Source: Alphaproteobacteria bacterium (lineage in GTDB: Bacteria > Pseudomonadota > Alphaproteobacteria > Micavibrionales > Micavibrionaceae). From it: DNA of 64,000 bases. Numbering within the stretch: position 1 is the stretch's first letter; each line of letters begins with the position of its first letter. Positions 3,056 through 37,937 of this stretch are shown piece by piece. The translations under genes and the position numbers were made by a program. The stretch spans positions 3,676 through 67,675 of the forward strand of contig JBNKRZ010000013.1 in the NCBI GenBank assembly GCA_050297015.1. Direction: 5' to 3'. The notes below the pieces were generated by a model that was not told the origin of the DNA, did not search any database, and saw nothing but the letters and a program-made list of their open reading frames with translations.

Positions 3056-4027
3056 TTAATCCCTCAAAAGCAAATCAAGCACGGCCATGCGAACGAAGAC
3101 ACCGTTGGCGACCTGTCTTAAAATCATGCTTTGTACGGGGTCGTCAGCTACGTCGTCGGCGATTTCCACACCGCGGTTGATGGGGCCGGGGTGCAAAACA
3201 ATCGCACCGGGTTTGGCTAGCGCCAGCCGTTCCTGCGTCAGGCCGTATTGGTGGAAGTATGCCGTATCGTCGGGGATTTCGCTGTCTTCCATGCGTTCCT
3301 TTTGAACCCGTAACATCATCACGGCATCGCAGCCGGGCAGGCCGTCTTCCATGCTATCGAACATTTTGATGGTACCGTCCGGCAATTTGTTCGGGTTAAC
3401 CATGAGCGACGGCGGCGCGATCAGGTGGATAGTTGCCCCCATTTTGCTGAGCAGGTGGATGTTCGACGCGGCAACGCGGCTGTGGGATAGGTCGCCGCAA
3501 ATCGCCACGGTCAGGCCTTCTAGCGCGCCCTTGGCTTGCCGGATTGTCAGAGCGTCGAGCAGGGCTTGTGTCGGGTGGGCGCGGTGGCTGTCCCCGGCAT
3601 TGATAACCGGGCAGTCGACACGGGCGGCGACGTAATCGGGTGCGCCGTATTCACTGTGGCGGATGATGACGGCATCCGGGCCTAGGGCGTTGAGTGTGGC
3701 GATGGTGTCATCGAAGGTTTCATCCTTTTTCATGGAGCTGGTGGCAACGCTCCAGTTCACAACTTCCGCCCCCAGCCGTTTGGCGGCGATCTCGAACGAG
3801 GTGCGGGTGCGCGTTGAATTTTCAAAGAACAGGTTCAGGATGACTTTACCCTTTAAGGTCGGGGCAGGGCTTTCCTCTTCGGCTGCCATATCGACGTAAT
3901 CCTGCGCGATATCGAGAATGGCCGTTATGTCAGCGGTGCTTAAAGGCTCTATACCGGTCAGGTGCTTATGCGGGAAAGCCGCTTTTGTATCGGTCATTGG
4001 TTTTATCAATTCCATGGCTAGGGTCAT
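3056..4027 (-). CDS. pyrB: Aspartate carbamoyltransferase catalytic subunit
   Basis: 323 aa with FFENSTRTRTSFE, HPTQALLD and LHPGPINRGVEI motifs. Confidence 0.95.
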   Translation of the reverse strand: MTLAMELIKPMTDTKAAFPHKHLTGIEPLSTADITAILDIAQDYVDMAAEEESPAPTLKGKVILNLFFENSTRTRTSFEIAAKRLGAEVVNWSVATSSMKKDETFDDTIATLNALGPDAVIIRHSEYGAPDYVAARVDCPVINAGDSHRAHPTQALLDALTIRQAKGALEGLTVAICGDLSHSRVAASNIHLLSKMGATIHLIAPPSLMVNPNKLPDGTIKMFDSMEDGLPGCDAVMMLRVQKERMEDSEIPDDTAYFHQYGLTQERLALAKPGAIVLHPGPINRGVEIADDVADDPVQSMILRQVANGVFVRMAVLDLLLRD

Positions 4028-4054: not shown

Positions 4055-4561
4055 CTAAAAAAGGGAAAAGTCACGAAATTGATAAAGAGCGGCAAGGATA
4101 ATCCCGGCGGCGAACCCCGGTCCGGCAGGAATTTGCAAGTGGGCGAAGTTAATTTGTTCTTTTGTCTTGTGGGTTTGATAGAGGCCGTATCCCAGTCCGT
4201 GAAGTAACCCGGCGAAAGCGCCGAGCGCCAAAGCCAGCATAACGCCGTCCGGCCCAAGCCATAATCCGGCGGCTCCCATTAATTTGACATCGCCCAGCCC
4301 TAACGCGTCGGTTTTATACAGGCGGTTGGCAATCAGGCGGATGAGGTAGAGTGTAGCAAATCCCGTAAGGCCTCCGGTGGCGATCCCGATCAGAGACAGG
4401 TAAGTCATTTGTGTGGCATCGTGAAAAAGGAGGCCCGTCAGAGCAAAGGGCGTAACGTACCGGTCCGGCAGCAGGCGCGTGCGCAGGTCAATGGCTGAAA
4501 GTACGATTAAAAGAGCGAGGGCAGCCGCAAGGCATAACAGGGCAATTGTAAATGGAAACAT
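4055..4561 (-). CDS. Prepilin peptidase, short A24-family form (peptidase domain only)
   Basis: 168 aa, multi-TM. Both catalytic Asp contexts are present (SAIDLRTRLLPD and GLGDVKLMGAAGLW). There is no N-terminal methyltransferase or zinc-finger extension. Confidence 0.75.
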   Translation of the reverse strand: MFPFTIALLCLAAALALLIVLSAIDLRTRLLPDRYVTPFALTGLLFHDATQMTYLSLIGIATGGLTGFATLYLIRLIANRLYKTDALGLGDVKLMGAAGLWLGPDGVMLALALGAFAGLLHGLGYGLYQTHKTKEQINFAHLQIPAGPGFAAGIILAALYQFRDFSLF

Positions 4562-4733
4562 GGCGGGCTTTCCTGAGGGAAAAACTGTGAGTATTTCGCG
4601 TAACGCTTTCAGCTTACAGTAATAAACTTATGTGGAAAAGTTTTTGTGTTTGAATTTTTTGTATTTGCCGTTAGACTAACAGAGTGATTCTATTTGCGGG
4701 AAAGTTTCTCCGTGTCTTTTTTTCGTCTGTCCC

Positions 4734-5129
4734 ATGACGGTTGAGTTGATGTCTGAAGAAAAAACAGTGTTAGTGGTCGAGGATAACGACTTTGTGCGTA
4801 TGCAAATTGTCAGTTTTCTCGGAGAGGTCGGGTACAATGTGCTTGAGGCCAGTGAGGGCGGTCAGGCGTTGGAGGCTTTTGCGGGTAATGATAATATCGC
4901 TCTGGCTATCGTTGATGTGCGGATGGAACCGGTCGGTGGTTTTGAATTTGTTAAGGCGATTCGGGGGCGTGATAACATGACCCCGGTTATTCTGGCGACG
5001 GGGGATCAAACGCCGGACTTGCTGGAGCAGGCGCAAAAATTGGGGGTGGCTGCTGTTTTGATGAAACCTGTGCAAAAGGATAGGTTGATAAAAATGGTGG
5101 AGCGTACTGTGATGAGCGGAGGAGGATGA
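4734..5129 (+). CDS. Single-domain response regulator (CheY-like receiver)
   Basis: 131 aa with receiver signature VLVVEDNDF, phospho-acceptor context AIVDVRMEP, TPVILATG and LMKPV. No output domain. The secretin gene starts 4 nt after its stop. Confidence 0.85.
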   Translation: MTVELMSEEKTVLVVEDNDFVRMQIVSFLGEVGYNVLEASEGGQALEAFAGNDNIALAIVDVRMEPVGGFEFVKAIRGRDNMTPVILATGDQTPDLLEQAQKLGVAAVLMKPVQKDRLIKMVERTVMSGGG

Positions 5130-5133
5130 TTTC

Positions 5134-6801
5134 GTGACGGGGGTTGCAAAGATCGGTACTTTAAAAAGTGGGGAGCGGAAAAATAATCGGCTGTCCGCTT
5201 CCGGTTATTTGTGTCTTTTGATGTTGCTCTTCCCTGTTTTGCCCATGCAAGGCTGTGCGCAGGCTGATTTGCCGGGTGCGCGCAATGTTTCTATCCCCAA
5301 TCCTGAATTTGCCAGTAAACGCGAAGAAGCTGTGAATGAGCGTCCGGATAGTGTGCTCTATTTGCCTTTGGGGCGGGATGTTTTGGTTCCGGAAATTAGT
5401 GCTGACGATCCTTTGCCTTCCGATAATGTGGGGCCTTTTGAACTGCGCGGGGAGACATTGGCCGGGGCGCTGCAATTAATTTTGGCCGATTATGATGTCT
5501 CTTTGGCGTTTGAGTCTGATGAAGGGCTTGATCGGCGGATTACTGTGGCGAATTTGCGTGGTCCTCTGAATCGCGTTGTGCGCCGCATTTGCGGCTTGGC
5601 GGATATGTATTGCGCTTATGAGGACGGCCTTTTGATTGTTAAGGAGACGCAGACTTTCACGGTAAAGATACCGCCGATCAGCCAGGATGCTAGCTTTATG
5701 AGTAATGTAGCCAAGGGGTTGCAGGCCGTGATTGGTACGGCACCTATTGTTGATGAATCGACGCGGACCTTGATTTATGAGGCTACGCAGCGGACGGCTG
5801 AGGTTGCTGAACGCTATTTTCAACGCATGCGTTCCAATACGGCTTTGATCGTGTTTGAAACTTATATTTGGGAAGTCGGCTTGAATAGCGGTAATTCCAC
5901 GGGGATCCAGTGGGATACGCTAGAGACGCTCGGCAAATATACGATGAATCTTGATATCAATGGTTCTGTTGGCGCGGACTTTTCAAATCCGATTAGTATA
6001 GGCCTGCCCACCACGCACGGTGCAGAGGGCGGTGTTTTCTCTCCGACGGATATTCTTGATTTTATGTCGAACTTCGGTGCGGTTAAAACGATATCTCAAC
6101 CGCAAATTACGGTGCTGTCTGGTTCTGAAGCGAAGTTGCGGGCGGCGGACACGGAAAACTATGTCTCTGAAATATCGGAAACGATTGATAACGGGCAATC
6201 GTCTACATCTGTAAGTACCAGCTCTGTTGATACCGGTTTTACGATTTCGATCGCCAGTGCTTGGGATAATGCCAGTATTTATGCCGATATTTCTATTCTT
6301 CTATCGGATGTATCGGAAATTGAAGACTTTACGTTCTCCTCGGCCGGCGGTGGGGATACAATTATTCAGTTGCCGAAAACGACGGAGCGTGAGCTTCAAA
6401 CGCAGGTGCGTATCCGCCCGGGTGATTCTTTGTTGATTGCCGGTCTTGTACGGGAAAGCGATAATTTCAGTTCTTCCGGTCCGGGGTTTGCCGAGCCGTT
6501 TTTCCCAAGCAGTCGTACGGCGACGGCGGAAAATCTGGAGCTTGTGTTCTTATTGCGGCCGCGCGTGATTGTTTACACCAGTCCTTCAGAGAGTGAGCAT
6601 TATAATGCCGTTCGTGGTGCGGCCTTTCAGCAAAAAACGAAGGGGGCCGTGCCTGTGTCTGGAGATGAAAATGGGGACGAGGAACTGGTCTTTGAATATG
6701 ATTTCGCGCCTTTGATGGTTGATGCTATGCCTGAGGAAGATGCGCATGAGGAGGAGGCCTCCGTTCCTGTTGACGTTTTGGCACCGGGAGGACGGCAATG
6801 A
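5134..6801 (+). CDS. Secretin (type IV pilus/T2SS family), possibly a lipoprotein
   Basis: 555 aa. N-terminal hydrophobic segment ending LPMQGC (atypical lipobox). C-terminal secretin core AVKTISQPQITVLSGSEAKLRAAD...IRPGDSLLIAGLVRES...LELVFLLRPRVI. Confidence 0.8.
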   Translation: MTGVAKIGTLKSGERKNNRLSASGYLCLLMLLFPVLPMQGCAQADLPGARNVSIPNPEFASKREEAVNERPDSVLYLPLGRDVLVPEISADDPLPSDNVGPFELRGETLAGALQLILADYDVSLAFESDEGLDRRITVANLRGPLNRVVRRICGLADMYCAYEDGLLIVKETQTFTVKIPPISQDASFMSNVAKGLQAVIGTAPIVDESTRTLIYEATQRTAEVAERYFQRMRSNTALIVFETYIWEVGLNSGNSTGIQWDTLETLGKYTMNLDINGSVGADFSNPISIGLPTTHGAEGGVFSPTDILDFMSNFGAVKTISQPQITVLSGSEAKLRAADTENYVSEISETIDNGQSSTSVSTSSVDTGFTISIASAWDNASIYADISILLSDVSEIEDFTFSSAGGGDTIIQLPKTTERELQTQVRIRPGDSLLIAGLVRESDNFSSSGPGFAEPFFPSSRTATAENLELVFLLRPRVIVYTSPSESEHYNAVRGAAFQQKTKGAVPVSGDENGDEELVFEYDFAPLMVDAMPEEDAHEEEASVPVDVLAPGGRQ

Positions 6802-8378
6802 GGCAAAAGGGATATGTTTTGTTGAATCTTCTGGCTTTGACGGTTTGTGCCGTGATGGCATGTGGCGCTTTTGCGCCGGCATTTGCTCAGAGTGCGTTTG
6901 ATGACCCTGCGGCGCGTTCCGCCGGGGGGAAGGCGGGGGGGAGTCTCGTTCCGGTTGCTCCTGTCGTTGATGGGGGCTCTGTTTCCGTCGGCGCTACGGC
7001 GCAGGTGGTGGTTCTCTTCCGTAACGATAGTGCACGGCCTGTTGAGACGGGCGCTATTCAGCTCTATCCTTCTTCGACGGTATCGGCAAATGTTTCTCTA
7101 AACCAGTGTGATAAGGAGCCTTTACCCGCAGGCGCATCCTGCGCGGTGGCGTTGTCTGTGAAGGGGCTTCAGGCGGGGAATTGGCGGATTGAAATGCTGA
7201 TGCGCCACAGCGGTCGCGCGCGGATTGTAACGGCGACGCTTTCGGGGGTCGTTGATGCCGGCGAAGGCGGTGGTAATGAGTTTATTAGTGATATTGAAGC
7301 CATTCCCAATGATCTTGATTTTGGCGAACTGACAACCAGCCAACCGGTTATAAAGGCGATTGTGCTGCGGAATATCACTTCGGAGACGGTTGATATTAAT
7401 GCAATTTATGTCGAGGCGGCGGAGCAAGCCGGTTATTCCTTGCGCAGCGATTGCGGAACGCTGGAGCCGGGGCAGGCCTGTATTGTGACTCTTACATGGT
7501 CGCCGGTGCTCAAGGGGCAGGCGACAGGTGTTTTGTTGATCGACCATACGGGACCTACGACCGTTACAAGTGTACCGCTGACCGGGGAGTTTAATCCTGA
7601 TAGCTCTGATGAAGCCGAAGTCTTCCCGGAGGCTGTGCCGGGCAAGGGGCTTCTGGTTGCTTCACAGAGCACGATTGATTTCGGCGCAGATATTGAAACG
7701 ACCTCGGCGATTACGGTGTCCTTGGTGAATGTCGGCGATGCGGCTCTAACACTGGGAGAAGTTGATTTGGCGGGTTCTGATAACGGCCTGAGCCTGAATA
7801 AGAAGGGCTGTGTGCCGGGAACCGTTTTGGAGCCTGTGGAGGCGTGTCCATTGACTGTTGCTTGGTCGCCGGTCCGCGAAGGCGCGATTATTGACGATAT
7901 TCAGGTTATTCATGATGGCGCGCGCGGTATTCTCGTCCTTCCTGTACGGGGCGAGTCTACGGGCGTCATTTCTCAGGATAAAAAGGCTGTGCGTCTTGGG
8001 GGCGCGACAACGGTGGGGACGCTGGCGTCTACCGGCTCCTCCGGTGGAAAGAGCGATAAGGAAGAGTTTATTGTGATCCGTGACAATGATGTTGATCCGG
8101 CCAGCGTTCTTGATGGTTTTGTGGTAACATCGCATTCTTCCAAGCGGGCAATTATCGCCGGGCCAGGCGGAAGCCGTATCGTGTTTGATGGTGAGGAGGT
8201 CGTGGTCGGCGGGTTCTTATGGTATGTTAATATACGCACCAGCGGCGTTGAATTCCGCAGCGGTCCGGACAAGGTTCTTTTGCTTTTCGACCGCTCTTTA
8301 TCTTCTGTTAACCGTGTTACGGGACAATCGAGCAGCAGTACGAGTTCTTCCACGGTGTCGAGCAGTACAAGTCAGTAA
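6798..8378 (+). CDS. Secreted pilus-cluster protein: three beta-sandwich (ASH/choice-of-anchor-D-like) repeats plus a PilP/GspC-HR-like C-terminal domain and a Ser-rich tail
   Basis: 526 aa with signal peptide ...AFAPAFAQ. Carries three repeats of the pattern (L/I)DFG...N.....(V/L)....C..L.PG..C.(V/L)...W.P...G. The C-terminal segment reads IVFDGEEVVVGGFLWYVNIRTSGVEFRSGPDKVLLLF. Start overlaps the secretin stop by 4 nt. Confidence 0.5.
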   Translation: MRQKGYVLLNLLALTVCAVMACGAFAPAFAQSAFDDPAARSAGGKAGGSLVPVAPVVDGGSVSVGATAQVVVLFRNDSARPVETGAIQLYPSSTVSANVSLNQCDKEPLPAGASCAVALSVKGLQAGNWRIEMLMRHSGRARIVTATLSGVVDAGEGGGNEFISDIEAIPNDLDFGELTTSQPVIKAIVLRNITSETVDINAIYVEAAEQAGYSLRSDCGTLEPGQACIVTLTWSPVLKGQATGVLLIDHTGPTTVTSVPLTGEFNPDSSDEAEVFPEAVPGKGLLVASQSTIDFGADIETTSAITVSLVNVGDAALTLGEVDLAGSDNGLSLNKKGCVPGTVLEPVEACPLTVAWSPVREGAIIDDIQVIHDGARGILVLPVRGESTGVISQDKKAVRLGGATTVGTLASTGSSGGKSDKEEFIVIRDNDVDPASVLDGFVVTSHSSKRAIIAGPGGSRIVFDGEEVVVGGFLWYVNIRTSGVEFRSGPDKVLLLFDRSLSSVNRVTGQSSSSTSSSTVSSSTSQ

Positions 8379-8396
8379 TTCAACCGGTTAAAGGTT

Positions 8397-10226
8397 ATGG
8401 ACGAACAGGATTTACCAGAAAAAGAAAATCAGGATGTACTGCCCGATGATGTGGTAGCCGATCGCCGTTCTTCATCTGATGCGGATCGTCGCCAAAAACC
8501 GGGGACGCCGCCCGATGGGGTTGAGCGCCGCCAGTGGAACGACCGCCGTAAACAGCGGGCGATTGAGGGCCGTGAACGCTATCTGGATATGGTGCAACGC
8601 GAGCGTTCCATTCTTTTCGATCAGGGGGTTTCCCGATCGACAGATCAGTTGCTTGATATGGCGGGCGCTGGCGCCGTTTCGGATTTAGAAGATGAAGGCA
8701 TTAAAGAGCAAGCGACCGGGGATCAGCTCCGTTCTATTTTACCTGTGCAGTCGTGGTTGCCGCTTAGTATTCACCTGATAGGTTTGCGCGACGGTGTATT
8801 ACGGATTGCTCCTCTTCACGAGATGAATGACCGCCAGATTAAGGCTCTGACCTCGACAGCACGCCGGACGGGGTTGAGCGTTGAAAAGGTTGAGGTTGAG
8901 ATTTGGGATCGGGCGGAACTGCTTGAGACGCTGCGTTCCGTTCATGATTTGTCGGCAGACCGCTGTGAAAAAACCTTGGCGCAATGGCTGGCTGATGTCG
9001 ATAACGGGCTTTTATTGAACCAATTCCAGCAAGATATGATGGCCGAAGCGCTGCAAATGCGGGCCTCTGATATTCACCTTTTGCAGGATAATAACCCCGA
9101 TTCACCGAACTGGATTCGCTACCGGATTGATGGTGATCTGGTTCCTATTCATTTGTTGCCACCTGATGCGATGGCCCGCTTGACGACTTTGTTGAAACGG
9201 GATGCGGGTTTGAACTTCGGGGATAAAACCACACCGAAGGATGGCCGTTTTGGCTTCTCGTGGCAGGGCCGAAGCATCGATGTGCGGGTGGCTGCCGGCC
9301 CGCAAGCGCAGGAAGGGGAAAAGCTGACCCTTCGTTTGTTGGACCGGGCCTCTTTGAAAAGTTTTGATGAGCTCTTTCGCCGTCACGAACATATCGGTGA
9401 TTATCTGGCGAATTTGCTCTCACCGGAGATTAAAGGGGGCGGAGGGCTGATCTTGCTTTCCGGGCCGACGGGATCGGGTAAAACGACGACGATGTATGCC
9501 TGCGTTCAGCAAATTGACCGCCGCCGCCGTCACGTTTTGACGATTGAAGATCCGATTGAATATGAACTGCGCTATGCGACCCAGTGGCAGGTGCGCCCCG
9601 GTATGGCCGGCGGGGAGTTTCCCGATTTGATTAGGGCGGCGATGCGTCATGACCCGGACTATATTATCATTGGGGAGATGAGGGATGCGGATACGGTGGA
9701 AACGTCTTTGCGGGCGGCTGAATCCGGGCACACGGTGATTTCAACCATCCACGCGGATACGGCGCTCCAGACGTTCGAGCGCTTGCGTTCGCTGATGCCG
9801 CATGAACGGGAGCGTTCTTCCAGCTATACTTTGGCGCAGCAGGTAAAAGCGGTCCTAAATCAGCGCTTGGTGCGGACTTTGTGTCAGGGCTGCGCCCATA
9901 CGGAAGTGGCCGGGCTTTATCTGGGTGAGCACGAAATCGAAGAGCTGGGGATCGACAGTGATGCGACTGTGCGCCGCCATAACCCCAGTGGCTGCGATTT
10001 GTGTAACCGGACCGGGATTGTCGGACGGACCCTGCTTTTGGATGCTTTGATGATTACATTAGGGCCGGGACAGAGAAATGATATTTACGAAGCCCTCATG
10101 AAAAACGTTAATGATATCGTTCATGAAGATGGCGTTATGGTTCATACGCGCCGTGAGGGTCTGATTGATCTTGTGTTAAGCGGACTGATTGATCCTAAAT
10201 CAGCCCTTTCTTATCTGGAAGAGTAA
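8397..10226 (+). CDS. GspE/PilB-family assembly ATPase
   Basis: 609 aa with Walker A LLSGPTGSGKTTT, IIIGEMRD, GHTVISTIHA and a tetracysteine motif CQGC...CDLC. Has a GspE_N-like domain preceded by an Arg/Asp-rich N-terminal extension. Confidence 0.9.
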   Translation: MDEQDLPEKENQDVLPDDVVADRRSSSDADRRQKPGTPPDGVERRQWNDRRKQRAIEGRERYLDMVQRERSILFDQGVSRSTDQLLDMAGAGAVSDLEDEGIKEQATGDQLRSILPVQSWLPLSIHLIGLRDGVLRIAPLHEMNDRQIKALTSTARRTGLSVEKVEVEIWDRAELLETLRSVHDLSADRCEKTLAQWLADVDNGLLLNQFQQDMMAEALQMRASDIHLLQDNNPDSPNWIRYRIDGDLVPIHLLPPDAMARLTTLLKRDAGLNFGDKTTPKDGRFGFSWQGRSIDVRVAAGPQAQEGEKLTLRLLDRASLKSFDELFRRHEHIGDYLANLLSPEIKGGGGLILLSGPTGSGKTTTMYACVQQIDRRRRHVLTIEDPIEYELRYATQWQVRPGMAGGEFPDLIRAAMRHDPDYIIIGEMRDADTVETSLRAAESGHTVISTIHADTALQTFERLRSLMPHERERSSSYTLAQQVKAVLNQRLVRTLCQGCAHTEVAGLYLGEHEIEELGIDSDATVRRHNPSGCDLCNRTGIVGRTLLLDALMITLGPGQRNDIYEALMKNVNDIVHEDGVMVHTRREGLIDLVLSGLIDPKSALSYLEE

Positions 10227-10231
10227 AGCCC

Positions 10232-11452
10232 ATGCAGCAATGGGTCGCCGAAGTTGCTTATGATACGCCCGCCGGGCCCAAACGGGTCATGGAATCGTAT
10301 TATATGCCTTCTGTTGAAGATGTACGGCGGGCTATTACCAAAAATGGCGGCTATCCTTTAAATATCCGGGCGCATGAGCGCTCGCCGCTGGAACGTTTGC
10401 TGGCCCGTTCCAACTGGTGGCAAGTTCAGCTTTTGCGGGGCATTCAGTTTCGTTCGACGGCGACATCGCCGGGGGTCGCGCTGTGGCGGATTATTGAGGC
10501 AGAAACCAACCCTATGCGCCAGAATATTCTGGCCCCGGCGCGGGAGGCTTTATCCCGTGGGCTGGGGGCCATTGATGCGTTGAAAGCTTTGCGGATTTTC
10601 GATCACGGGACGATCGCTATTCTGGCGGCTAGTGAACGGGCGAATCGCCTGCAGGACGGGATTCCCCATGCGATCCATTCTATCACCCAGAAAAAGAAAA
10701 ACACGCGGGCGATCATGGGGACGATGGCATGGTTGGTCTTTGATGTGTTCTCAATCGTGTCCTCGCTCTTTGCCGGGAAACCCATGGTGATGAACTGGTT
10801 CAGAGACAACCCGCCCAGTGATCCGGAGGAGTATGAAAGATACACGCGTGTCGTCGATAATCTAGGACTGACGTGGGATATATTGATCGCTACGGCCTTT
10901 GGTTTGGGCGGTTTTATTGCCTGGGTTGTTTTTTCTTACTGGATTAACAAGGGGAAGACCGACTGGCCGACGGCCAAGATTGTACGGAAAATCCCGTTGG
11001 TCGGTTCTTATTTGCGTGACCTTGGCTTTTCCGATTCGATGATGGCGGCGGCGCGGATGCTGCGCGGGATGGTGCCGATTGGTGATGCTTTGGCGCAATC
11101 ATCGGAGGCGACGACCGTGCCGGAGGTTTCCAAATACTGGAAAAAGGCGGCCGGAGAACTGGAACGTGGCGTTTTGTTGGGCTCGGCGCTGGATATTCCG
11201 CCTTTGACCCGTAGCGAGCGTTTGGAACTTGCAAGCTTGTCTGATCTCTCGCAAGTTGCTACAGTATTAGAGTCTATCGCCGAAATGCGTTCTGCGGCGG
11301 CAAAAACGAAACACACGATGATCGTCTGGATAGCTTTTGGTTTGACGGGCGTCTATCTGGCTCTGGCTTTCGGGAGTGCGATTTACGCGTTAACAGTTAT
11401 GAATATGAGCCTCGACAGTATGATGGGTGGCTTAATGCAAGGAGCGATGTAA
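10232..11452 (+). CDS. PilC/GspF-like inner-membrane platform protein
   Basis: 406 aa. Two helical T2SSF-like halves (e.g. ILAASERANRLQDGI; second half ...GDALAQSSEATTVPEVSKYW...), each followed by hydrophobic TM segments. Sits immediately after the ATPase. Confidence 0.6.
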   Translation: MQQWVAEVAYDTPAGPKRVMESYYMPSVEDVRRAITKNGGYPLNIRAHERSPLERLLARSNWWQVQLLRGIQFRSTATSPGVALWRIIEAETNPMRQNILAPAREALSRGLGAIDALKALRIFDHGTIAILAASERANRLQDGIPHAIHSITQKKKNTRAIMGTMAWLVFDVFSIVSSLFAGKPMVMNWFRDNPPSDPEEYERYTRVVDNLGLTWDILIATAFGLGGFIAWVVFSYWINKGKTDWPTAKIVRKIPLVGSYLRDLGFSDSMMAAARMLRGMVPIGDALAQSSEATTVPEVSKYWKKAAGELERGVLLGSALDIPPLTRSERLELASLSDLSQVATVLESIAEMRSAAAKTKHTMIVWIAFGLTGVYLALAFGSAIYALTVMNMSLDSMMGGLMQGAM

Positions 11453-12436
11453 TTGCCTGATGCTGATGAAAATAAAAAAGAAGTGAAAGCCGGAAACGCC
11501 CGCCCCGTTTCGGAAGGTGCTGTGCGTTTGAAGCCCGGGCTGGCCGATCATATCGCCGGTGAAGTTGCGGATTTTAAAGAAAATCTTTCACCTTATCTGC
11601 CTCAGGAATTGGTTGGCGGTTCGATTCCGCAAGTGCCGGGGACGGAAGATGAGGCTATATGGAATGCGGCTTCTCAGGCGTGCGGGACGGAAAGAGTACA
11701 TTACTGCTATACCGTTGAGGAAGGGCGCTGTTGGTATTTGGCGAGTCCGTCTTCTTCGCTGGCATCCAACCCGGATAGTTGGTGTCCGATTGCTGCAGCC
11801 TTGCCGGGGAATAGTGAGTATTGGGACCGGGAGACGGTTTATCTCTATGAACAAGAAGGGATGGCTTCGGCTTTGCGCTGGGATCCAGAGACGGGGCGGA
11901 TGCAGGTCTTTACCGGTGCGGCCCGGACGTTGTTGCCGCGGATTCAAAGTATGGATGCCAATTTTGTGACGATTAATCCCGATGTAGCGCAGCAGGTACC
12001 TTGGCGTAACCGCGCTTTACGAACGGAAAAACTCTCTCGCGCTACGGCACGGGCTTTGCTGGGGATAGCTCTTGTTATTAACTTGGTCGCGGCTTTGATT
12101 CTACTGTTTCAGTTTGCCTATACGAATATGGTTAAACGCGATCTGGAGAAGGTTCAGGCAAGAACGGAGGAGGCATCGCAAAAGCTTATGGCTAATGCTT
12201 ATGATGCGCTACAAAGCGATACGATTCGCCATATGGTGCGGATACAGGAGCTTTTAGATGCCTTACAGGTGATTGATGGTACGTTGCTGCGTTATGAGGT
12301 GAAGAAAAAGGATGTCGAGTGGGAGGCTTTGGTGCCGCAGGCGTTCGGGACTTGTACCGGCGCTTTAAGGGGCTGTAAGCCCGTCACGGACAGCGTTGAA
12401 AAGGACGGGCGTGTCCGTCTTATCGGTAGGAAATAA
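11453..12436 (+). CDS. Bitopic inner-membrane pilus-assembly protein (PilM/N- or GspL-like topology), family unrecognised
   Basis: 327 aa with a TTG start abutting the platform gene stop. About 200-aa cytoplasmic part, one TM (ALLGIALVINLVAALILLFQFAY) and a roughly 100-aa periplasmic coiled region. Confidence 0.45.
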   Translation: MPDADENKKEVKAGNARPVSEGAVRLKPGLADHIAGEVADFKENLSPYLPQELVGGSIPQVPGTEDEAIWNAASQACGTERVHYCYTVEEGRCWYLASPSSSLASNPDSWCPIAAALPGNSEYWDRETVYLYEQEGMASALRWDPETGRMQVFTGAARTLLPRIQSMDANFVTINPDVAQQVPWRNRALRTEKLSRATARALLGIALVINLVAALILLFQFAYTNMVKRDLEKVQARTEEASQKLMANAYDALQSDTIRHMVRIQELLDALQVIDGTLLRYEVKKKDVEWEALVPQAFGTCTGALRGCKPVTDSVEKDGRVRLIGRK

Positions 12437-12545
12437 GAATAAAGGTTTAATACTAAAGTATAGGTTAACCATTTGATTTATAAAGGATTAATCATTTAGG
12501 TTTTATTATGAAGGTAGAAAAGAGATATAAAAAGGGACAGATATC

Positions 12546-13079
12546 GTGGTTGACATGAAGTCATTTGACTGGCGCGTTTTGCAGCGTTATTTAACACCGC
12601 AAGCGTCGGACGATTTAAACCATTTTCTTGAAAAACTGCCGCAAAACGCCGGACAGACGGTTTTGATTGCGGCCGGTGCGGCGTGGGTCCTTGCCGCGGC
12701 TATGGGGCTTTACACAACCGTTCAATTACAGAATATGACGGAATTGCGTGCGGAGCTAAAGGAAACGCAAGCCTTGCAGCCCGTGGTTCCCAAGATTAAA
12801 GACGTGCCTGTTAATCCGAAAGAGGTGGAAGCGTTTGCCAAGGTTTTGGAGAAAAACTACCCGAATTTGTCTATTGATCAGAAAGGGGCCGCTATTTTTA
12901 TTTCTGCAAAATCGACAGCGCATTTCGGACAATTTCGTGAAGCGGTCGGTCATGTGCAAAACGGTGGTACGGGCTGGCGTGTTTCGGTCGAACGTTTATG
13001 TGTCGGACGTGAGTGCGATAAAAATAAACTTGGTGCCTTGTTGAAAATCAATAAAGTTTCCGTGGATAAGCCAAGTTAA
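12546..13079 (+). CDS. Small bitopic membrane protein of the pilus cluster
   Basis: 177 aa (GTG at 12546 or ATG at 12555). Single TM (TVLIAAGAAWVLAAAMGLYTTV) followed by a periplasmic domain. No family recognised. Confidence 0.45.
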   Translation: MVDMKSFDWRVLQRYLTPQASDDLNHFLEKLPQNAGQTVLIAAGAAWVLAAAMGLYTTVQLQNMTELRAELKETQALQPVVPKIKDVPVNPKEVEAFAKVLEKNYPNLSIDQKGAAIFISAKSTAHFGQFREAVGHVQNGGTGWRVSVERLCVGRECDKNKLGALLKINKVSVDKPS

Positions 13080-13160
13080 GGATGTTTTGAGTGGAAGTTT
13101 GTGATAATCTGAAAAACAGACTGTGATTGTGATCCAGTCGCGAATGGACGGAGAAAAAGG

Positions 13161-13904
13161 ATGAAATTAGCCAGTGATAACTATAGCAAGGAACGGGAAA
13201 GTGGGAACGTGTTGTTCCTTATTCTTATTGCTGTGGCCTTGTTTGCTGCTTTATCATATGCGGTCACGCAATCGACCCGGACGGGGGGCGGTAGCGGCGA
13301 TAATGAAACCTCTTTGATCTCCAGTGCGCAGTTGACGCAATATCCAGCCAGTATTCGTACCGCTGTGGTGCGTATGATTATTGGTGGCACAGATGTTGAT
13401 AATGTTGCTTTTGATCCGCCGGCGGACTTTGCCGCTTTGGCGAATACGGCCAATGCCGTTTTCCATCCATCGGGTGGTGGTGCGACATATAGCACCGCGC
13501 CGGGGGAAATGATGGAAAGTTCAACGGCGGGCACGTGGCATTTTAATGCCGAAAATCAGATTGATTTGCTGGGGACCTCTTCGGGGGATAATGATCCTGT
13601 CGCTTCGACAGCTGATGTGATCGCGTTCTTGCCAAGCATTACGTTGACGCTTTGCTCGCGGGTTAACAGTGAATTGGGGCTTTCCTCAATCCCACCAGTC
13701 GAAACAGGAATTGATGTAACAACTGACATGGATGAAGCCGTTGGTATCTGTAGTGTTTGCGCGGCCGGTGCGACGATTGGTGACGGTGCAGGGGCCGGGG
13801 CGCTTGACGGTCAGCCTTTTGGTTGTTTCCAGTTAACCGGTCTGGATGCGAATGCCGATGGTGATGATGATTATGTTTATTATCACGTTCTTGTGGAGCG
13901 CTAA
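13161..13904 (+). CDS. Pilin-like protein (type IVb-style 15-aa leader, Gly at -1, no Glu+5); candidate major subunit
   Basis: 247 aa. Leader MKLASDNYSKERESG, then NVLFLILIAVALFAALSYAVTQS (class III signal-like hydrophobic helix). Followed by a hairpin terminator at 13950-13992. Confidence 0.6.
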   Translation: MKLASDNYSKERESGNVLFLILIAVALFAALSYAVTQSTRTGGGSGDNETSLISSAQLTQYPASIRTAVVRMIIGGTDVDNVAFDPPADFAALANTANAVFHPSGGGATYSTAPGEMMESSTAGTWHFNAENQIDLLGTSSGDNDPVASTADVIAFLPSITLTLCSRVNSELGLSSIPPVETGIDVTTDMDEAVGICSVCAAGATIGDGAGAGALDGQPFGCFQLTGLDANADGDDDYVYYHVLVER

Positions 13905-13949
13905 GGCTGGATGGCATTAGTCGAGCGCCCTTTATATAAAGTTTAGAAA

Positions 13950-13992
13950 AACCCGGCTGTTTCTGCTTTATGCGTCAGCCGGGTTTGTTTTG
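13950..13992 (+). terminator. Rho-independent terminator/attenuator between the two pilin-like genes
   Basis: Stem AACCCGGCTG (13950-13959) / CAGCCGGGTT (13976-13985), followed by TGTTTTGG. Confidence 0.55.
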
Positions 13993-14008
13993 GCAAAAAG
14001 GAAGATGA

Positions 14009-14734
14009 ATGATGGAAGACAAAGGGATACGGCAACATAAAATGCAGCGTGGCAGTGCGTTGATTTATATCCTGATTGCGATTGCGCTTTTGGCGGCGCT
14101 AACGTTGTCTTTTATGGAACCTTCCAGTCAGCAAACGCAAAGCCAAAACAGTTTTAAAATTATTTCGGAAGTACAGTCTCAAACAGAATTTATCCGTTCC
14201 GCCATTCAGGGGTGCGTTTTGGGATATCCCGGCGGGGACAGCGGTGCGATTTCAGATGGAGCGCAGCTCAATAACCCTTATCCTATTATGCCTGATGATA
14301 GCTATTTTGATAACCAGTGTGGGGCCGGAGAATCTGCCGCGAATGACAATGTGTCGGGATTGCGCTGTCCGGGGAAACCGGGCGACGATCCATGCCATGA
14401 TGACGTGTTTGGTGCGTCATCGGGGAAATTCCTGCCGCCAGCGCCGCCTTTGTTTAATGATTGGCGTTATTATGCCGGGACGGATGGCGTGTTCCTGTGG
14501 CTCTCGACCGACAAAACGGATGCTTATATCCAGACGGCGTTAACCAAGCTCGACGGTGAATTTTCCGAATGTGAGGCCGATGTGATTGATGCATCGGGCG
14601 GCGCTGTGGATTTGGATAGTGCTTCAACCATTTCTTGCCCGGCGGGGAGCAGCTGTTTCCGGGTGTGGATGATTGCCAAAGCGACGGCGACTTATCAGGC
14701 CGGCGGGCCTGAAGATACGGCGGGTTGTCCGTAG
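14009..14734 (+). CDS. Pilin-like protein 2 (Cys-rich; Gly at -1, Tyr at +5)
   Basis: 241 aa. Leader MMEDKGIRQHKMQRG, then SALIYILIAIALLAALTLSF. Many Cys in the globular part. Confidence 0.55.
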   Translation: MMEDKGIRQHKMQRGSALIYILIAIALLAALTLSFMEPSSQQTQSQNSFKIISEVQSQTEFIRSAIQGCVLGYPGGDSGAISDGAQLNNPYPIMPDDSYFDNQCGAGESAANDNVSGLRCPGKPGDDPCHDDVFGASSGKFLPPAPPLFNDWRYYAGTDGVFLWLSTDKTDAYIQTALTKLDGEFSECEADVIDASGGAVDLDSASTISCPAGSSCFRVWMIAKATATYQAGGPEDTAGCP

Positions 14735-14753
14735 AGACTTTAGGGGGCTAACC

Positions 14754-16763
14754 CTAGTCAGGCTGTAAGCCTTCCAGTGCGGCTTTAACGCGCTCGAATT
14801 CATCTTTAATGTCGCTGATTTGTTTGGCACTGGCGGTGTTTCCTGATGCCGTGTCTTGCAGGGTTGCGGCGAGGCTGCCCAGAATCATGCACCCGGCGGA
14901 GCGTGCACTACCCTTCAAGCTATGGGCGGCTTCGGTCAAAGCCGGGAAATCATCATGCGCGAAAGCTTTTTCCAGATTGGTAATGACAGAGGAAACCATA
15001 CCGGGGAACATTTTGAGCATTTGTACGGTGCTCTCGTCAAGCGCGCCCATTTGTTCCCGCACCGCGTTCAGGTCAATGGCCGGGTTTTTGTCGGTTGGTT
15101 TGATAACGTTGTTTGTTTTGCCTTGAGGCATCTCTGCTTCTTCGTTTTCCTTCATCAATCCCCAGCGGATCAGAAGACGGCGGAATTGCCCCAGTGAAAC
15201 AGGTTTTAACAGGCATTCGTCAAAGCCATGACTTAAATAAACTTGCCGTTCGGCCATCTGCACATCCGCGGTCAAAACGATAACAGGAAGATTTTTATCG
15301 CTGTCTTTTTCAGCGGCCCGGATGGTCTCGACGACTTCGTATCCATCAATCTCCGGCATGTGCAGATCTGTGAAAACAATGCCGTATTTCCCGGTTTTCA
15401 CGGCGTCCAGCGCCGCGCGGCCATTATCAACAAAGTCGGCGTCGACCCCCAATTTATCAAGCTGGCGCTGCAAGACATCGCGGACGCTTTCTGTATCCTC
15501 GGCGATCAACAGGCGAGTCGGGCCGTCTATATTGATTTTGTGCGCCTTGGCGGCCGCATCCTGTACGGCTTTTCCCAATCCGGCGCGGCTGGCTGGTTTG
15601 GAAAGGTATGTGACCCCCAATGATTGCAGGGAGTGTTGCAGCCCCTTGTCATCGCGCACGGTGTACATGATGAGGCCCATAAAGGGGCGGTGCGTCATGA
15701 TTTCCTTGATAAGGTCCAGTCCCAGACCGTCGGGGAGGCCTTGGTCGATAATCCCCACATCGAACGGGCGACGTTTGATGAGTTCCAATCCTTCCCGGTA
15801 GGTCGGGCAGCTTTCAACTTTGGCACCCATCGATTCTAGCGAGCGTACGATTTCCTTGGCCCCTTGCGGGTGATCCTCAACCGAGAGAACGGATATTCCC
15901 TCCAAAGAAGGAAGATCAACGGTTGTTGTATCGGTGCTGACTTCTTCTGTTGGTATCTCAAACCAAAAGGTCGACCCTTTGCCCTCAACACTGTCAACGC
16001 CGATCTTGCCACCCATAAGCTCGACAAGCTTTTTACAGATGGAAAGCCCCAACCCCGTCCCGCCATATTTACGGGAGGTTGAATTATCAGCTTGTGTAAA
16101 GGGCTGGAACAGATTGCGGGCTGTTTCTTTTGGCATACCTATGCCGGTATCGCTGATCTCAAAACGCAGATTAATGCCGCTTTCCGGGGACGGTAATTGT
16201 TTACACTTGGTCGTGACGTGGATAATGACGGAGCCTTTCTCCGTGAATTTTATGGCGTTGCCCATCAAATTCATCAAAATCTGGCGCAAGCGTTTGGGAT
16301 CGCCGATAATCACGTAAGGGACTTTGCCCTCAATATCGCCGACGAGGTTCACATCCTTTTTACGGGTTTTGACGGCCAGCGCCTCTAAAATACCGCCGAC
16401 CAGTGTGCGGACCGGAACTTCGAACGTATCGAGTTCCATTTTGTGGGCATCCATTTTGGCAAAGTCGAGAATATCGTCGAGTATCTCCAAAAGGCCGCTA
16501 GCGGATTGCTTGGCCGTACTGACCATGCTGCGGATGCTATTCGGATCGTCTTCTGTCTCGATTAATTCCAGTAAACCGTAGACGGATTGCATAGGCGTGC
16601 GGATCTCGTGGCTCATCGTGGCCAGAAAATTGGCTTTTTGTTCGGCGGCGGCGTCGGCTTGTTCGACCGCCTTTTGAAGCTCTTTGATTGTCGGCTTTTT
16701 GCTCATGGATAGAAATTTCCACTCAGGAAGGGCTTGCTTTTTATCAGCGTTACAGTTTATCAC
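14754..16763 (-). CDS. Soluble hybrid sensor histidine kinase (HisKA-HATPase-REC-REC-HPt)
   Basis: 669 aa with H-box FLATMSHEIRTPM, G-boxes DTGIGM and GGTGLGLSICKKLVELMGG, two receiver-like regions (second with FTDLHMPEIDG) and a C-terminal HPt motif HSLKGSARSAG. No TM or obvious sensor domain. Confidence 0.85.
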   Translation of the reverse strand: MINCNADKKQALPEWKFLSMSKKPTIKELQKAVEQADAAAEQKANFLATMSHEIRTPMQSVYGLLELIETEDDPNSIRSMVSTAKQSASGLLEILDDILDFAKMDAHKMELDTFEVPVRTLVGGILEALAVKTRKKDVNLVGDIEGKVPYVIIGDPKRLRQILMNLMGNAIKFTEKGSVIIHVTTKCKQLPSPESGINLRFEISDTGIGMPKETARNLFQPFTQADNSTSRKYGGTGLGLSICKKLVELMGGKIGVDSVEGKGSTFWFEIPTEEVSTDTTTVDLPSLEGISVLSVEDHPQGAKEIVRSLESMGAKVESCPTYREGLELIKRRPFDVGIIDQGLPDGLGLDLIKEIMTHRPFMGLIMYTVRDDKGLQHSLQSLGVTYLSKPASRAGLGKAVQDAAAKAHKINIDGPTRLLIAEDTESVRDVLQRQLDKLGVDADFVDNGRAALDAVKTGKYGIVFTDLHMPEIDGYEVVETIRAAEKDSDKNLPVIVLTADVQMAERQVYLSHGFDECLLKPVSLGQFRRLLIRWGLMKENEEAEMPQGKTNNVIKPTDKNPAIDLNAVREQMGALDESTVQMLKMFPGMVSSVITNLEKAFAHDDFPALTEAAHSLKGSARSAGCMILGSLAATLQDTASGNTASAKQISDIKDEFERVKAALEGLQPD

Positions 16764-16809
16764 AAACCATGTGAGAGCAATACCCTAAGAGTATGAAGAG
16801 GTTACAAGA

Positions 16810-17820
16810 ATGGGCTATAAAGTGGCGGTGATGGGCGCGACGGGCAATGTCGGCCGGGAAATGATGAATATCGTGCATGAGCGGGGCTTCCCGGTGGATG
16901 AGATGATTCCGCTGGCCTCAAGCCGTTCGGTGGGGCGAGAGGTATCATTCGGTGATGATGACCTGAAAGTGCAAGACCTCGCGACATTTGATTTTAAGGG
17001 CATTGATCTGGTGCTTTCCTCTCCGGGTGCGAAGGTATCCGCAGAATATGCCCCGAAAGCGGCCAAGGCCGGGGCTGTGGTTATTGATAACACCAGCCAT
17101 TTCCGCACGGACCCGGATATTCCGCTGGTCGTACCGGAAGTCAACCCTCAGGCGATTGCTGATTACAAGAACAAAGGCATTATCGCGAACCCGAATTGTT
17201 CGACGATCCAGATGGTCGTGGCGCTCAAACCTCTGCACGATTTGGCGAAAATCAAGCGCGTGGTTGTCTCGACTTATCAATCGGTATCGGGGGGTGGAAA
17301 ATCCGCGATGGATGAGCTGTTTAACCAGACACGCGGTATCTATGCCAACCAACATCCTGAGCCGGAAATCTTTGCCAAACAGATAGCCTTTAATGTTATC
17401 CCCCAGATTGATGTCTTTATGGACGATCACATGACAAAGGAAGAGTGGAAGATGGTCGTGGAAACGAAGAAAATTCTCGATCCCGCCATCAAAGTGTGTG
17501 CGTCTTGCGCGCGCGTGCCGGTCTTCATCGGGCATGCCGAGTATGTGAATGTCGAATTTGAAAATGAGATCAGCGCCAAGGAGGCCAAAGCCGCGTTCCG
17601 TGATTTTGAAGGTATAACCCTGATCGACCTTGAAAGCGATATGGAATACGTCACGCAAGCCGAAATCGCCGGGGAGGACGATGTGTTTGTCTCCCGCTTG
17701 CGGGAAGACCCGACCGTTGATAGCGGTTTGAATTTCTGGTGTGTGGCGGATAACTTACGTAAAGGGGCGGCGCTTAACACTGTCCAAATTGCGGAAGTTT
17801 TGGTTAAAGATTATCTTTAG
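16810..17820 (+). CDS. asd: Aspartate-semialdehyde dehydrogenase
   Basis: 336 aa with VMGATGNVGREM NAD-binding motif and active-site context NPNCSTIQMV. Confidence 0.95.
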   Translation: MGYKVAVMGATGNVGREMMNIVHERGFPVDEMIPLASSRSVGREVSFGDDDLKVQDLATFDFKGIDLVLSSPGAKVSAEYAPKAAKAGAVVIDNTSHFRTDPDIPLVVPEVNPQAIADYKNKGIIANPNCSTIQMVVALKPLHDLAKIKRVVVSTYQSVSGGGKSAMDELFNQTRGIYANQHPEPEIFAKQIAFNVIPQIDVFMDDHMTKEEWKMVVETKKILDPAIKVCASCARVPVFIGHAEYVNVEFENEISAKEAKAAFRDFEGITLIDLESDMEYVTQAEIAGEDDVFVSRLREDPTVDSGLNFWCVADNLRKGAALNTVQIAEVLVKDYL

Positions 17821-17840
17821 TTTTCTTTCAGATCATAAGT

Positions 17841-17870
17841 AAAAAAAAGCGGCCTGATCAGCCGCTTTTT
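17841..17870. terminator. Bidirectional rho-independent terminator shared by asd (+) and the dotF-like gene (-)
   Basis: AAAAAAAAGCGGC-ctgatca-GCCGCTTTTT: a perfect stem flanked by an A-run and a T-run. Confidence 0.7.
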
Positions 17871-17895
17871 CTATATGAGATATAAAGAGGGAAGG

Positions 17896-19152: not shown

Positions 19153-19284
19153 AACTTCTATCCTTTAGTCAGGTTATAATGGTGACGTTTTTGAAATATA
19201 TTCGTTTCTACTTACTTCTGTAAATCGTTACTCATGTAGAGTTTCTTATGCCTCGTGCAAAAATAATCAAACGACGATAGGGGG

Positions 19285-21652: not shown

Positions 21653-21677
21653 GTGTTTAAGTCTCCTTGCTTATCCC

Positions 21678-22430: not shown

Positions 22431-22602
22431 AATCTGTAGGGTCAGTTGAATTGATAAACAACGAATCTCTTTATTATGTACCAGAAAAAACCGTTCCCCT
22501 CCAAGAGCTAAAAGATAACATATCCGCAACTATCCCTGAAAAAAATGCAATGATGGGAAAAAACAGCTGGAGCCCTTTCAGGGATATGGTAGTTTTTGTG
22601 CA

Positions 22603-37931: not shown

Positions 37932-37937
37932 GGATTT

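Follow-up and report, generated by a model that had tools for sequence, protein, structure and literature searches.

A type IV filament gene cluster of a putative unnamed lineage beside Dot/Icm genes in a Micavibrio-like alphaproteobacterium

The thin pilus of the IncI1 plasmid R64 (PilL-PilV) is a type IVb (T4b) pilus serving a Dot/Icm-like (MPF_I) conjugation system, and the bundle-forming pilus (Bfp) of enteropathogenic Escherichia coli (EPEC), with its secretin BfpB and the proteins BfpC and BfpD, is also a type IVb pilus. Both were compared here with a cluster of ten genes in a 64,000-nucleotide stretch of DNA (the window) from an alphaproteobacterium of the Micavibrionaceae (assembly GCA_050297015.1, contig JBNKRZ010000013.1, positions 3,676 to 67,675), which also carries genes of a Dot/Icm-like type IVB secretion system (T4BSS). 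An earlier sequence-only reading of the window had proposed a common IncI-like ancestor for the cluster and the T4BSS. The comparison showed that the cluster probably encodes a complete and expressed type IV filament (T4F) machine of a small, unnamed lineage, distinct from the IncI/T4b, type IVa (T4a), mannose-sensitive haemagglutinin (MSH) and tight adherence (Tad) pili and from type II secretion systems (T2SS), whose product is likely a contact filament for docking to prey.

The features of the T4F superfamily were found in the cluster: PF00437, PF01478 and PF00263 matched above their cut-offs, together with a GspF-like platform and subunits that have a class III signal peptide and lack glutamate at +5 (Glu5). 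To our knowledge, Glu5 is near-universal in type IV pilus subunits. The cluster is far beyond chance, as its gene order was repeated in relatives across the order and in Micavibrio aeruginosavorus ARL-13. Shared gene order, a platform family of its own and pilin-like proteins ending in YY.V mark it as an apparent member of an unnamed Glu5-less T4F lineage. In the classification of type IV filaments by Denise et al. (2019), none of the classes matches the features of this lineage.

The genome carrying the cluster is 1.95 Mb and 99% complete. The source organism is a Micavibrio-like epibiotic predator, as judged from its nearest public proteins, which are named Micavibrio, 'Rhodospirillales bacterium' or 'Alphaproteobacteria bacterium' (metagenome-assembled genomes). 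Loci outside the window are given below by L numbers, genomes of the order by G numbers and contigs by C numbers.

Parts of the machine and its pilin-like subunits

The ten genes lie between the housekeeping genes pyrB (3056-4027) and asd (16810-17820), with a hybrid histidine kinase gene after them:

4055-4561, minus strand: short A24 prepilin peptidase, 168 aa (PF01478 71.9 bits, E 6.7e-20)
4734-5129, plus strand: CheY-like single-domain response regulator, first gene of the operon (PF00072 79.9 bits)
5134-6801, plus strand: short outer-membrane secretin, 555 aa, probable lipoprotein (PF00263 56.1 bits)
6798-8378, plus strand: signal-peptide protein, 526 aa, with ASH / choice-of-anchor-D immunoglobulin (Ig)-like repeats (PF15780 ASH E 1.1e-16, PF22544 E 2.6e-10, NF012200 E 5e-15)
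8397-10226, plus strand: assembly ATPase of the GspE/PilB class, 609 aa (PF00437 262.6 bits)
10232-11452, plus strand: inner-membrane platform, 406 aa, highly diverged homologue of GspF/PilC (matched to E. coli GspF in hhalign)
11453-12436, plus strand: bitopic protein, 327 aa, BfpC/GspL/PilM-N-like (one transmembrane (TM) segment, AlphaFold2/Foldseek)
12546-13079, plus strand: small bitopic protein, 177 aa, resembling GspM/PilO only in size, topology and position
13161-13904, plus strand: pilin-like protein of 247 aa, probably the major subunit (15-aa leader with ESG at its end, hydrophobic helix)
14009-14734, plus strand: second pilin-like protein of 241 aa, probably a minor subunit or a tip subunit (15-aa leader with QRG at its end)
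14754-16763, minus strand: hybrid histidine kinase of 669 aa, a conserved neighbour (domains assigned from the translation)

The sequence-only reading had listed most of these parts correctly. The short peptidase, the lipoprotein-style short secretin, the GspE/PilB ATPase with its tetracysteine motif, the two bitopic assembly proteins (one TM segment each) and the two pilin-like proteins with 15-aa leaders (Gly at position 15 in both) were all recovered. Its 'single fused platform' stood as a single platform gene and not as a fusion, the layout being the ordinary GspF/PilC one of three TM segments and two repeats. The CheY-like regulator, the 526-aa Ig-repeat protein and the adjacent hybrid histidine kinase had been overlooked.

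The peptidase matched PF01478 only and has no N-terminal methyltransferase domain; a GLGDVK motif was read from its sequence. Its gene is divergent to the operon here, in L034, in L077 and in ARL-13 (GMV_1939). A 160-aa A24 peptidase was also seen directly after gspD in an alphaproteobacterial T2SS locus on a Pararhizobium plasmid (L033:7922-8404), so that a short peptidase without the methyltransferase domain is not in itself a type IVb or Tad marker. The CheY-like regulator is at the same position in L034 and ARL-13 (GMV_1938), and an ortholog of the hybrid kinase adjoins the cluster in L034, L077 and ARL-13 (GMV_1929); the two proteins are probable regulators of the cluster.

The signal peptide of the secretin ends in Cys (..PMQGC), and an equivalent Cys was present in other secretins of the lineage, within a canonical lipobox in one ortholog (LASC) and in a distant relative (LAAC), and as LQSC in another ortholog. 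Against NCBIfam the secretin scored 93 bits with MshL, 71.0 bits with the PilN family and 31.5 bits with GspD, all under the cut-offs, and it had no match to the N-terminal part of the GspD model. The best match among solved structures was BfpB (E 1.5e-13). A distant family member, the 691-aa secretin of L117 (4975-7050), also matched the DotD domain PF16816, a T4BSS-type lipoprotein domain, and a TcpQ-domain gene and a second secretin lie upstream of it. The 526-aa protein fills the slot between secretin and ATPase and has a beta-rich C-terminal segment. ASH-like proteins occupy the same slot in L118 and L119, and from its position the 526-aa protein may be a PilP/GspC-like connector.

The ATPase carries Walker A GPTGSGKT at 356 and the tetracysteine motif as CQGC at 496 and CDLC at 533. 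The four Cys were invariant in an alignment of 12 ATPases, of which nine are from distant members of the family, two are Micavibrio-like orthologs and one is a GspE. The equivalog models of GspE and PilB gave 236.6 and 227 bits, both under the cut-offs, and the best match in the Protein Data Bank (PDB) was GspE at 1e-51, with BfpD at 1.7e-25. Residues 1-110 (window 8397-8730) form an Arg/Asp-rich low-complexity N-terminal extension preceding a T2SSE_N-like region. The ATPase relative on a Rhodoferax plasmid has instead a weak MshEN-type motif for binding of cyclic di-GMP (29 bits, below the cut-off), and that of L121 has a weak MshEN Pfam hit.

The platform has three predicted TM segments and scored 23.0 bits with Pfam T2SSF (cut-off 25.2). 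In hhalign its profile matched E. coli GspF at 95.9% (E 6e-9), the platform of an E. coli plasmid T4b pilus at 87% and R64 PilR at 0.8%. Only 190 relatives were found at E <= 1e-3 among 1.84 billion representative proteins, and none of the 190 was an ordinary GspF or PilC. The 327-aa protein consists of a cytoplasmic alpha/beta domain, a TM segment (201-219) and a small periplasmic domain. When its AlphaFold2 model (predicted local distance difference test (pLDDT) 76.6) was compared by Foldseek, the best meaningful match was BfpC in its cytoplasmic domain (3vhj, prob 0.97, TMt 0.51), followed by PilM (5eoy) and the periplasmic domain of EpsM (1uv7), none of them at E <= 0.001. Homologues of this L-like protein were present in all family clusters. 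The M-like 177-aa protein has a TM segment at about 38-56 and gave no match to hidden Markov models (HMMs), and a gene for 150-220 aa follows the L-like gene in most family clusters seen. A Pfam search at E <= 10 returned nothing useful for the L-like protein, the M-like protein or the C-terminus of the Ig-repeat protein.

In each pilin-like protein a charged 15-aa leader with Gly as its last residue precedes a hydrophobic stretch of about 20 residues, in register with GspG. In the 247-aa protein the leader is followed by NVLFLILIAVALFAALSYAVTQSTR, with Leu, not Glu, at +5; the 241-aa protein has Tyr at +5. The N-terminus of the 247-aa protein, E-x-G|NVLFLILIAVALFAALSYAVTQSTR, hardly varied among 20 orthologs whose sequences otherwise share 50-75% identity, which is the pattern expected of a filament core. 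In its AlphaFold2 model (pLDDT 79), helices at 17-37 and 46-74 are separated by a Gly-rich break and precede a beta-sheet. Compared with the PDB by Foldseek, the model found no solved pilin and gave chance-level hits only (best E 0.7). In hhalign the 247-aa protein gave 0.6% with R64 PilS and 0.8% with E. coli GspG, the shared part being only the in-register signal peptide. About 3,100 relatives were found at E <= 1e-5, all unnamed and without a Pfam domain. The 241-aa protein had weak N-terminal matches to GspK (E 0.0075, 35 residues) and to Verru_Chthon cassette protein A, and is homologous to the Rhodoferax protein h180 (E 1.5e-14) and the Methylibium protein h184.

Six dispersed paralogs of the 247-aa protein were found in the same genome:

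C23:29789-30490
C5:74-1234
C5:146122-146847
C5:176430-177146
C5:182103-182795
C11:23948-24700

They share an E-x-G|N...hydrophobic N-terminus and a C-terminal F/Y-Y-H/Q-V-L motif, and one of them adjoins a divergently transcribed response regulator. These paralogs may be interchangeable subunits or tips. The 247-aa family has eight copies in G002 and eight in G014, despite three stops in the ATPase frame of G014. It was absent from six of the nine genomes that lack the machine and present as one, mostly more divergent, copy in the other three; the family thus co-varies with the machine.

Comparison with the R64 thin pilus and linkage to the T4BSS

Every Pil protein of R64 (NC_005014) was compared with the window proteins by BLASTP and phmmer, and by hhalign for platform and pilin. 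The ATPase was 29% identical to PilQ (99 bits), the secretin 24% identical to PilN (50 bits) and the peptidase matched PilU at E 3e-5. No counterpart of PilM, PilO, PilP, PilR, PilS or PilV was found among the cluster proteins by these methods, and the likeness to R64, a weak one, is confined to the secretin, ATPase and peptidase that are common to the whole superfamily. With the PilN-family model TIGR02520 (cut-off 287.65 bits) the window secretin stayed at 71.0 bits, as against 482.6 bits for R64 PilN as a control. R64 PilS (G|WAILE) and PilV (G|WASLE) carry Glu5 where the window proteins have Leu and Tyr, and no recombinase or inverted segments (shufflon) were found beside the window pilin genes.

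In layout the cluster resembles the thin pilus in its lipoprotein secretin, its PilB-class tetracysteine ATPase (as R64 PilQ also is), its one platform, its short peptidase without a methyltransferase domain and its co-residence with a type IV secretion system (T4SS); the wider family in addition has a large tail-fibre-like protein after the pilins, recalling the PilV adhesin. The cluster differs from R64 in having one gene, not two, between secretin and ATPase, in L-like and M-like genes placed after the platform, in pilins without Glu5 or the PilS domain, in the missing shufflon, in an ATPase of another clade and in a linkage to the T4BSS that is not conserved.

An ATPase tree was calculated from 27 taxa and 554 columns (LG+C20, posterior mean site frequency; no MshE sequence included). 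R64 PilQ and the ATPase of the E. coli plasmid T4b pilus grouped together at 100/97 and were joined with GspE/HofB/PilB at 95/91, outside the lineage of the cluster. The Micavibrio ATPases (100/100) grouped with the metagenomic L116, L119 and L117 (93/95), while a second family group united the Rhodoferax and Methylibium plasmid ATPases with L114, L118 and L121-L123 (90/91). In the approximately unbiased (AU) test on the 27 taxa, an exclusive clade of the family with the T4b ATPases was marginally rejected (p 0.038), and a clade of the family with GspE/PilB was not rejected (p 0.118). Smaller trees of 15 and 16 taxa were non-discriminating (15-taxon AU p 0.14 for the exclusive T4b clade, and 0.28). 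The safe conclusion is that the ATPase belongs to a separate lineage, not nested in the IncI/T4b group.

The T4BSS of the window and the two further genes that the sequence-only reading had counted as scattered thin-pilus parts are as follows:

19285-22529: T4BSS genes dotG/H/I
33750-35162, minus strand: TcpQ-domain protein, 470 aa, downstream of dotD-dotC-dotB and outside the pilus cluster (PF10671 E 1.6e-13)
35950-38450: T4BSS genes dotB/C/D
38594-38998, minus strand: small SLT-domain lytic transglycosylase beside dotD (PF01464 E 2e-9)

Pfam confirmed both domains, and both proteins resemble R64 proteins: the TcpQ-domain protein weakly PilL (E 4e-5), the SLT protein PilT (31% identity over 94 residues, E 7e-10). 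The window order dotD-dotC-dotB-(icmT)-TcpQ gene also mirrors traH-traI-traJ-traK...pilL of an IncI-like Burkholderia plasmid. This Burkholderia pseudomallei plasmid region was found as a secretin match, and only its annotated gene order was used. However, the TcpQ gene of the window is 19 kb from the pilus cluster and next to dotB, and a TcpQ-domain protein was present in 12 of 12 genomes tested, nine of them without the cluster, lying 13-17 kb from dotH in G017, G022 and G038. As it is kept in cluster-less genomes, the gene does not depend on the pilus cluster; it probably belongs with the T4BSS or is independent, and is unlikely to be a displaced component of the pilus. The TcpQ-domain gene may be a pilL relic kept by the T4BSS, and the SLT gene is most simply a generic T4BSS accessory.

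In the 41 genomes of the order that were searched, DotH was present in 40 (counted over the Pfam cut-off) and an ortholog of the cluster ATPase in about 31. The same gene order was seen in L013, L017, L019, L034 and L077. Between families of the order, identities were 61-87% for the ATPase and 60-83% for the platform, and about 30 genomes had intact frames. The ARL-13 cluster (GMV_1930-1939) is flanked by asd, then succinate dehydrogenase genes, and is also given as lying between asd and pyrB. Nine genomes had neither a platform nor an ATPase ortholog and did have the T4BSS and the TcpQ-domain gene. One further genome, G014, carries an ATPase ortholog with three in-frame stops (TGA, TAG, TAA; C2:127227-129044) and has eight pilin-family genes left, which looks like machine loss in progress. 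Overall, the cluster is vertically inherited in most Micavibrio-like predators and lost in about a quarter.

The cluster was near dot/icm in only three of the 41 genomes, at about 12 kb from dotH in G000 and G002 and about 7 kb in G007, and additionally in locus L077, where dot genes were within the 10-kb flank. The distance to dotH was 99 kb in G030, 134 kb in G032 and 155 kb in G014, and in most others the two were on different contigs. The closeness of the cluster to dot/icm is a local arrangement in the genus. No paper linking Micavibrio with Dot/Icm was found in the collection searched.

The idea of the sequence-only reading was that the pilus cluster and Dot/Icm are halves of one ancestral IncI-like tra+pil element that still cooperate, with the TcpQ and SLT genes as stray parts. 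It draws on the Burkholderia-like gene order, on the PilT and PilL resemblances, on the T4b-type best matches of the secretin and the L-like protein, and on the 3-12 kb between cluster and dot genes in G000, G002, G007 and L077. Against it stand the six unmatched Pil proteins, the secretin at 71 bits where the PilN family asks for 288, the Glu5 of the R64 pilins, the place of PilQ with GspE/PilB, the 40 genomes with a T4BSS as compared with about 31 with the cluster, separations of 100-155 kb in G014, G030 and G032, ARL-13 neighbours that are not T4BSS genes and the TcpQ gene retained where the cluster is missing. IncI descent is thereby largely refuted for the pilus cluster itself, and we regard the proposal as a whole as very unlikely. 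The label 'type IVb-like' is a reasonable one, in view of BfpB as the best solved secretin match and BfpC as the best fold match of the 327-aa protein; membership in a system of the R64 kind is not supported.

These two matches are also what the cluster shares with the EPEC Bfp. The ATPase matched BfpD far less well than it matched GspE or PilB (93 vs 180 bits), and the window cluster, unlike Bfp, has no retraction ATPase and no Glu5 pilins, and its platform is nearer to GspF than to a T4b platform. Two further described machines were considered and set aside. For the MSH pilus, MshL was the best secretin model (93 of 250 bits) but is generic, R64 PilN itself scoring 96 with it, and no further msh-like genes were found in the cluster, the MshE model being outside the comparison. 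The Tad pilus was suggested by the short peptidase but was rejected, since the ATPase is of the GspE/PilB class, the platform is a single full-length protein and the genome has a Tad locus elsewhere.

Relatives on plasmids and beside type IV secretion genes

A locus search with a single ATPase query returned Micavibrio-like loci only. Homology over the whole cluster was found with two unannotated plasmid clusters, and nine more distant members, metagenomic loci, were inspected in their contigs:

163.5-170.6 kb of Rhodoferax ferrireducens T118 plasmid NC_007901 (MPF_T): unannotated cluster
361-370 kb of Methylibium petroleiphilum PM1 plasmid NC_008826 (MPF_F): unannotated cluster
L114/L115: cluster inserted between virB8-virB9 and virB10-virB11-virD4
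L122: traF-traH-traG directly after the cluster
L121: cluster behind a TraG_N gene, ending in a protein of >2630 aa with a Peptidase_S74 domain (15331-21248)
L119: plasmid-like (Rep3, DnaB), ending in a 1037-aa S74 protein (14217-17330)
L120: mobile-element-like
L116, L117, L118, L123: no T4SS within 10 kb

Compared with the Rhodoferax plasmid, the secretin was 31% identical (E 1e-52), the ATPase 39% (E 3e-77) and the platform 28% (E 1.5e-21). One or both plasmid clusters also had matches to the L-like protein and to the two pilin types, giving homology for six of the eight core proteins. The Rhodoferax, Methylibium and L114-L123 clusters agree with the Micavibrio one in having a secretin, a small periplasmic protein, an ATPase, a platform, a bitopic protein of about 300 aa, another of about 155 aa and pilin-like genes without Glu5, and all family clusters looked up carried such Glu5-less genes. 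The pilin-like protein of L114 ends, like the Micavibrio ones, in a YY.V motif. In the ATPase tree the nearest relatives of Micavibrio are the metagenomic loci named above, and the plasmid clusters are in the other subclade.

The relatives are found on conjugative plasmids or in or beside T4SS operons and often end with a peptidyl-prolyl isomerase and a giant Peptidase_S74 protein. The Micavibrio version, in contrast, is chromosomal, with the 526-aa Ig-repeat protein replacing one of about 200 aa, a cleavage site 'G|N' where other family clusters have 'GF|', and dispersed pilin paralogs. No giant tail-fibre-like gene was found after the Micavibrio cluster.

Further genes were noted downstream of relatives. 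The giant S74 or tail-fibre proteins after the plasmid-borne ones are reminiscent of the IncI PilV tip adhesin, and a plasmid-borne relative in L025 (11229-14378) is followed by a 'tail fiber assembly protein' gene. In L123 (6817-15395) about eleven tandem genes for 214-254 aa follow the cluster and may encode a series of pilin-like subunit variants.

Small as the sample is, conjugative elements bearing T4SSs of several classes are evidently a usual setting for the family. In this respect the earlier idea survives: a T4b-like pilus that accompanies a T4SS is partly supported at the level of the wider family, on plasmids and in virB and tra loci, and its descent from IncI is not.

Expression, the secretion alternative and the role in the predator

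All ten cluster genes are expressed in the RNA-seq table of ARL-13 (PMC3189940, supplementary file 4). The pilin ortholog GMV_1931 is the highest in the cluster, with 9.9 in attack phase and 53.8 in attachment phase, and the cluster genes rise 1-5 fold in attachment phase (PMC3189940). The sole T4BSS gene among the ARL-13 rows listed, icmO, is at 4.3 in attack and 3.5 in attachment phase (PMC3189940). The same paper describes an incomplete T2SS, counted there as 'functional', that has no GspC, G, H or K and is induced in attachment phase (PMC3189940). This 'incomplete T2SS' is most simply, and most likely, the present cluster, a complete and separate T4F machine.

The main rival, which we consider fairly unlikely, is that the cluster is a divergent T2SS, in which a short pseudopilus of the 247-aa protein would push folded hydrolases through the secretin while the cell feeds on its prey. 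Several features agree with a T2SS. Among the ATPase models GspE scored highest (237 bits), and GspE was also the nearest solved structure, the platform profile was nearest to E. coli GspF and is followed by the L-like and M-like genes, the cluster has no retraction ATPase, short A24 peptidases accompany an alphaproteobacterial T2SS, and the attachment-phase induction in ARL-13 was reported for a 'functional' system (PMC3189940). The window cluster is in addition the only candidate T2SS in the genome. On the other side, the Gsp equivalog models all stayed far under their cut-offs (GspD 31.5 of 351 bits, GspE 236.6 of 630, GspF 25.7 of 424), and the secretin, a short lipoprotein like BfpB, MshL and PilN, lacks the N-terminal GspD match. 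HMM searches gave no hits to GspC or to the pseudopilins GspG-K except the 35-residue GspK match of the 241-aa protein, so that GspC and Glu5-bearing GspG-J are missing. The subunit, with about 230 aa in its mature form and 6-8 dispersed paralogs, is unlike pseudopilins, and the relatives in conjugation clusters, followed by giant tail-fibre-like proteins with Peptidase_S74 domains, point to cell contact and away from secretion.

It is highly improbable that the cluster is merely what is left of a decaying mobile element and now has no role in the predator. The loss in about a quarter of the order, the three stops in the G014 frame and the plasmid-borne nearest relatives outside Micavibrio would fit it; the identities of ATPase and platform across families, the frames intact in about 30 genomes, the nearly invariant pilin N-terminus, the place between pyrB and asd and the expression of all the genes in ARL-13 argue against it.

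The reading as a complete contact filament machine has to be set against several observations that weigh the other way. No filament was seen. The 247-aa protein had no match to a known pilin in Pfam, NCBIfam, hhalign or Foldseek, and the label 'pilin' reflects signal-peptide shape, predicted architecture, operon position and co-occurrence in proteins that lack Glu5. The roles proposed for the 526-, 327- and 177-aa proteins derive from weak fold matches (no Foldseek E <= 0.001) or from position. Deep branches of the ATPase tree were poorly resolved, with monophyly of the whole family unsupported as a single node, and what is said of the family and T4SSs draws on a sample of 11 loci, not on a census. 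Finally, the genome has a T4a pilus locus on C32 (PilQ, two PilT, PilD, PilB) and a Tad locus, so that a T4a pilus and a Tad pilus are already available to the organism for adhesion, and no GspE-type system other than the T4a PilB was found in it, which favours a secretion role.

For the contact filament, which we still hold to be the probable product, the following assembly can be proposed; the presence, homology and conservation of the parts were observed directly, and their roles in assembly and regulation are what we infer from them. Prepilins of the 247-aa family and the 241-aa protein would be inserted into the inner membrane and trimmed after Gly15 by the dedicated short A24 peptidase, probably without N-methylation because the peptidase has no methyltransferase domain. 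The GspE/PilB-class ATPase, as a hexamer, would dock on the BfpC/GspL-like cytoplasmic domain of the 327-aa protein and on the divergent GspF-like platform, and would drive the Glu5-less subunits into a filament. The filament would leave through the BfpB/MshL-like lipoprotein secretin, with the 526-aa Ig-repeat protein and the 177-aa protein bridging both membranes. The CheY-like regulator and the neighbouring hybrid kinase would control the system.

A broader proposal, which we put forward as speculative and rather unlikely, is that the lineage is a portable 'contact pilus' module that has been recruited repeatedly by VirB-, F- and Dot/Icm-like T4SSs and that in Micavibrio has been domesticated for docking to prey, placing the Dot/Icm machine found across the order so that it can deliver effectors into another bacterium. 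If this were true, the Glu5-less subunits would imply a rule of filament packing unlike that of all characterised bacterial type IV pili. For the study of pili, the cluster is an additional lineage, with subunits that have no Glu5 and no match to a known pilin fold. For conjugation, it suggests accessory mating pili beyond the IncI-type plasmids, in a different form, with VirB-type and F-type systems. The cluster sits in a bacterial lineage where the Dot/Icm system is near-universal (40 of 41 genomes), and it bears on how Micavibrio attaches to its prey and feeds.

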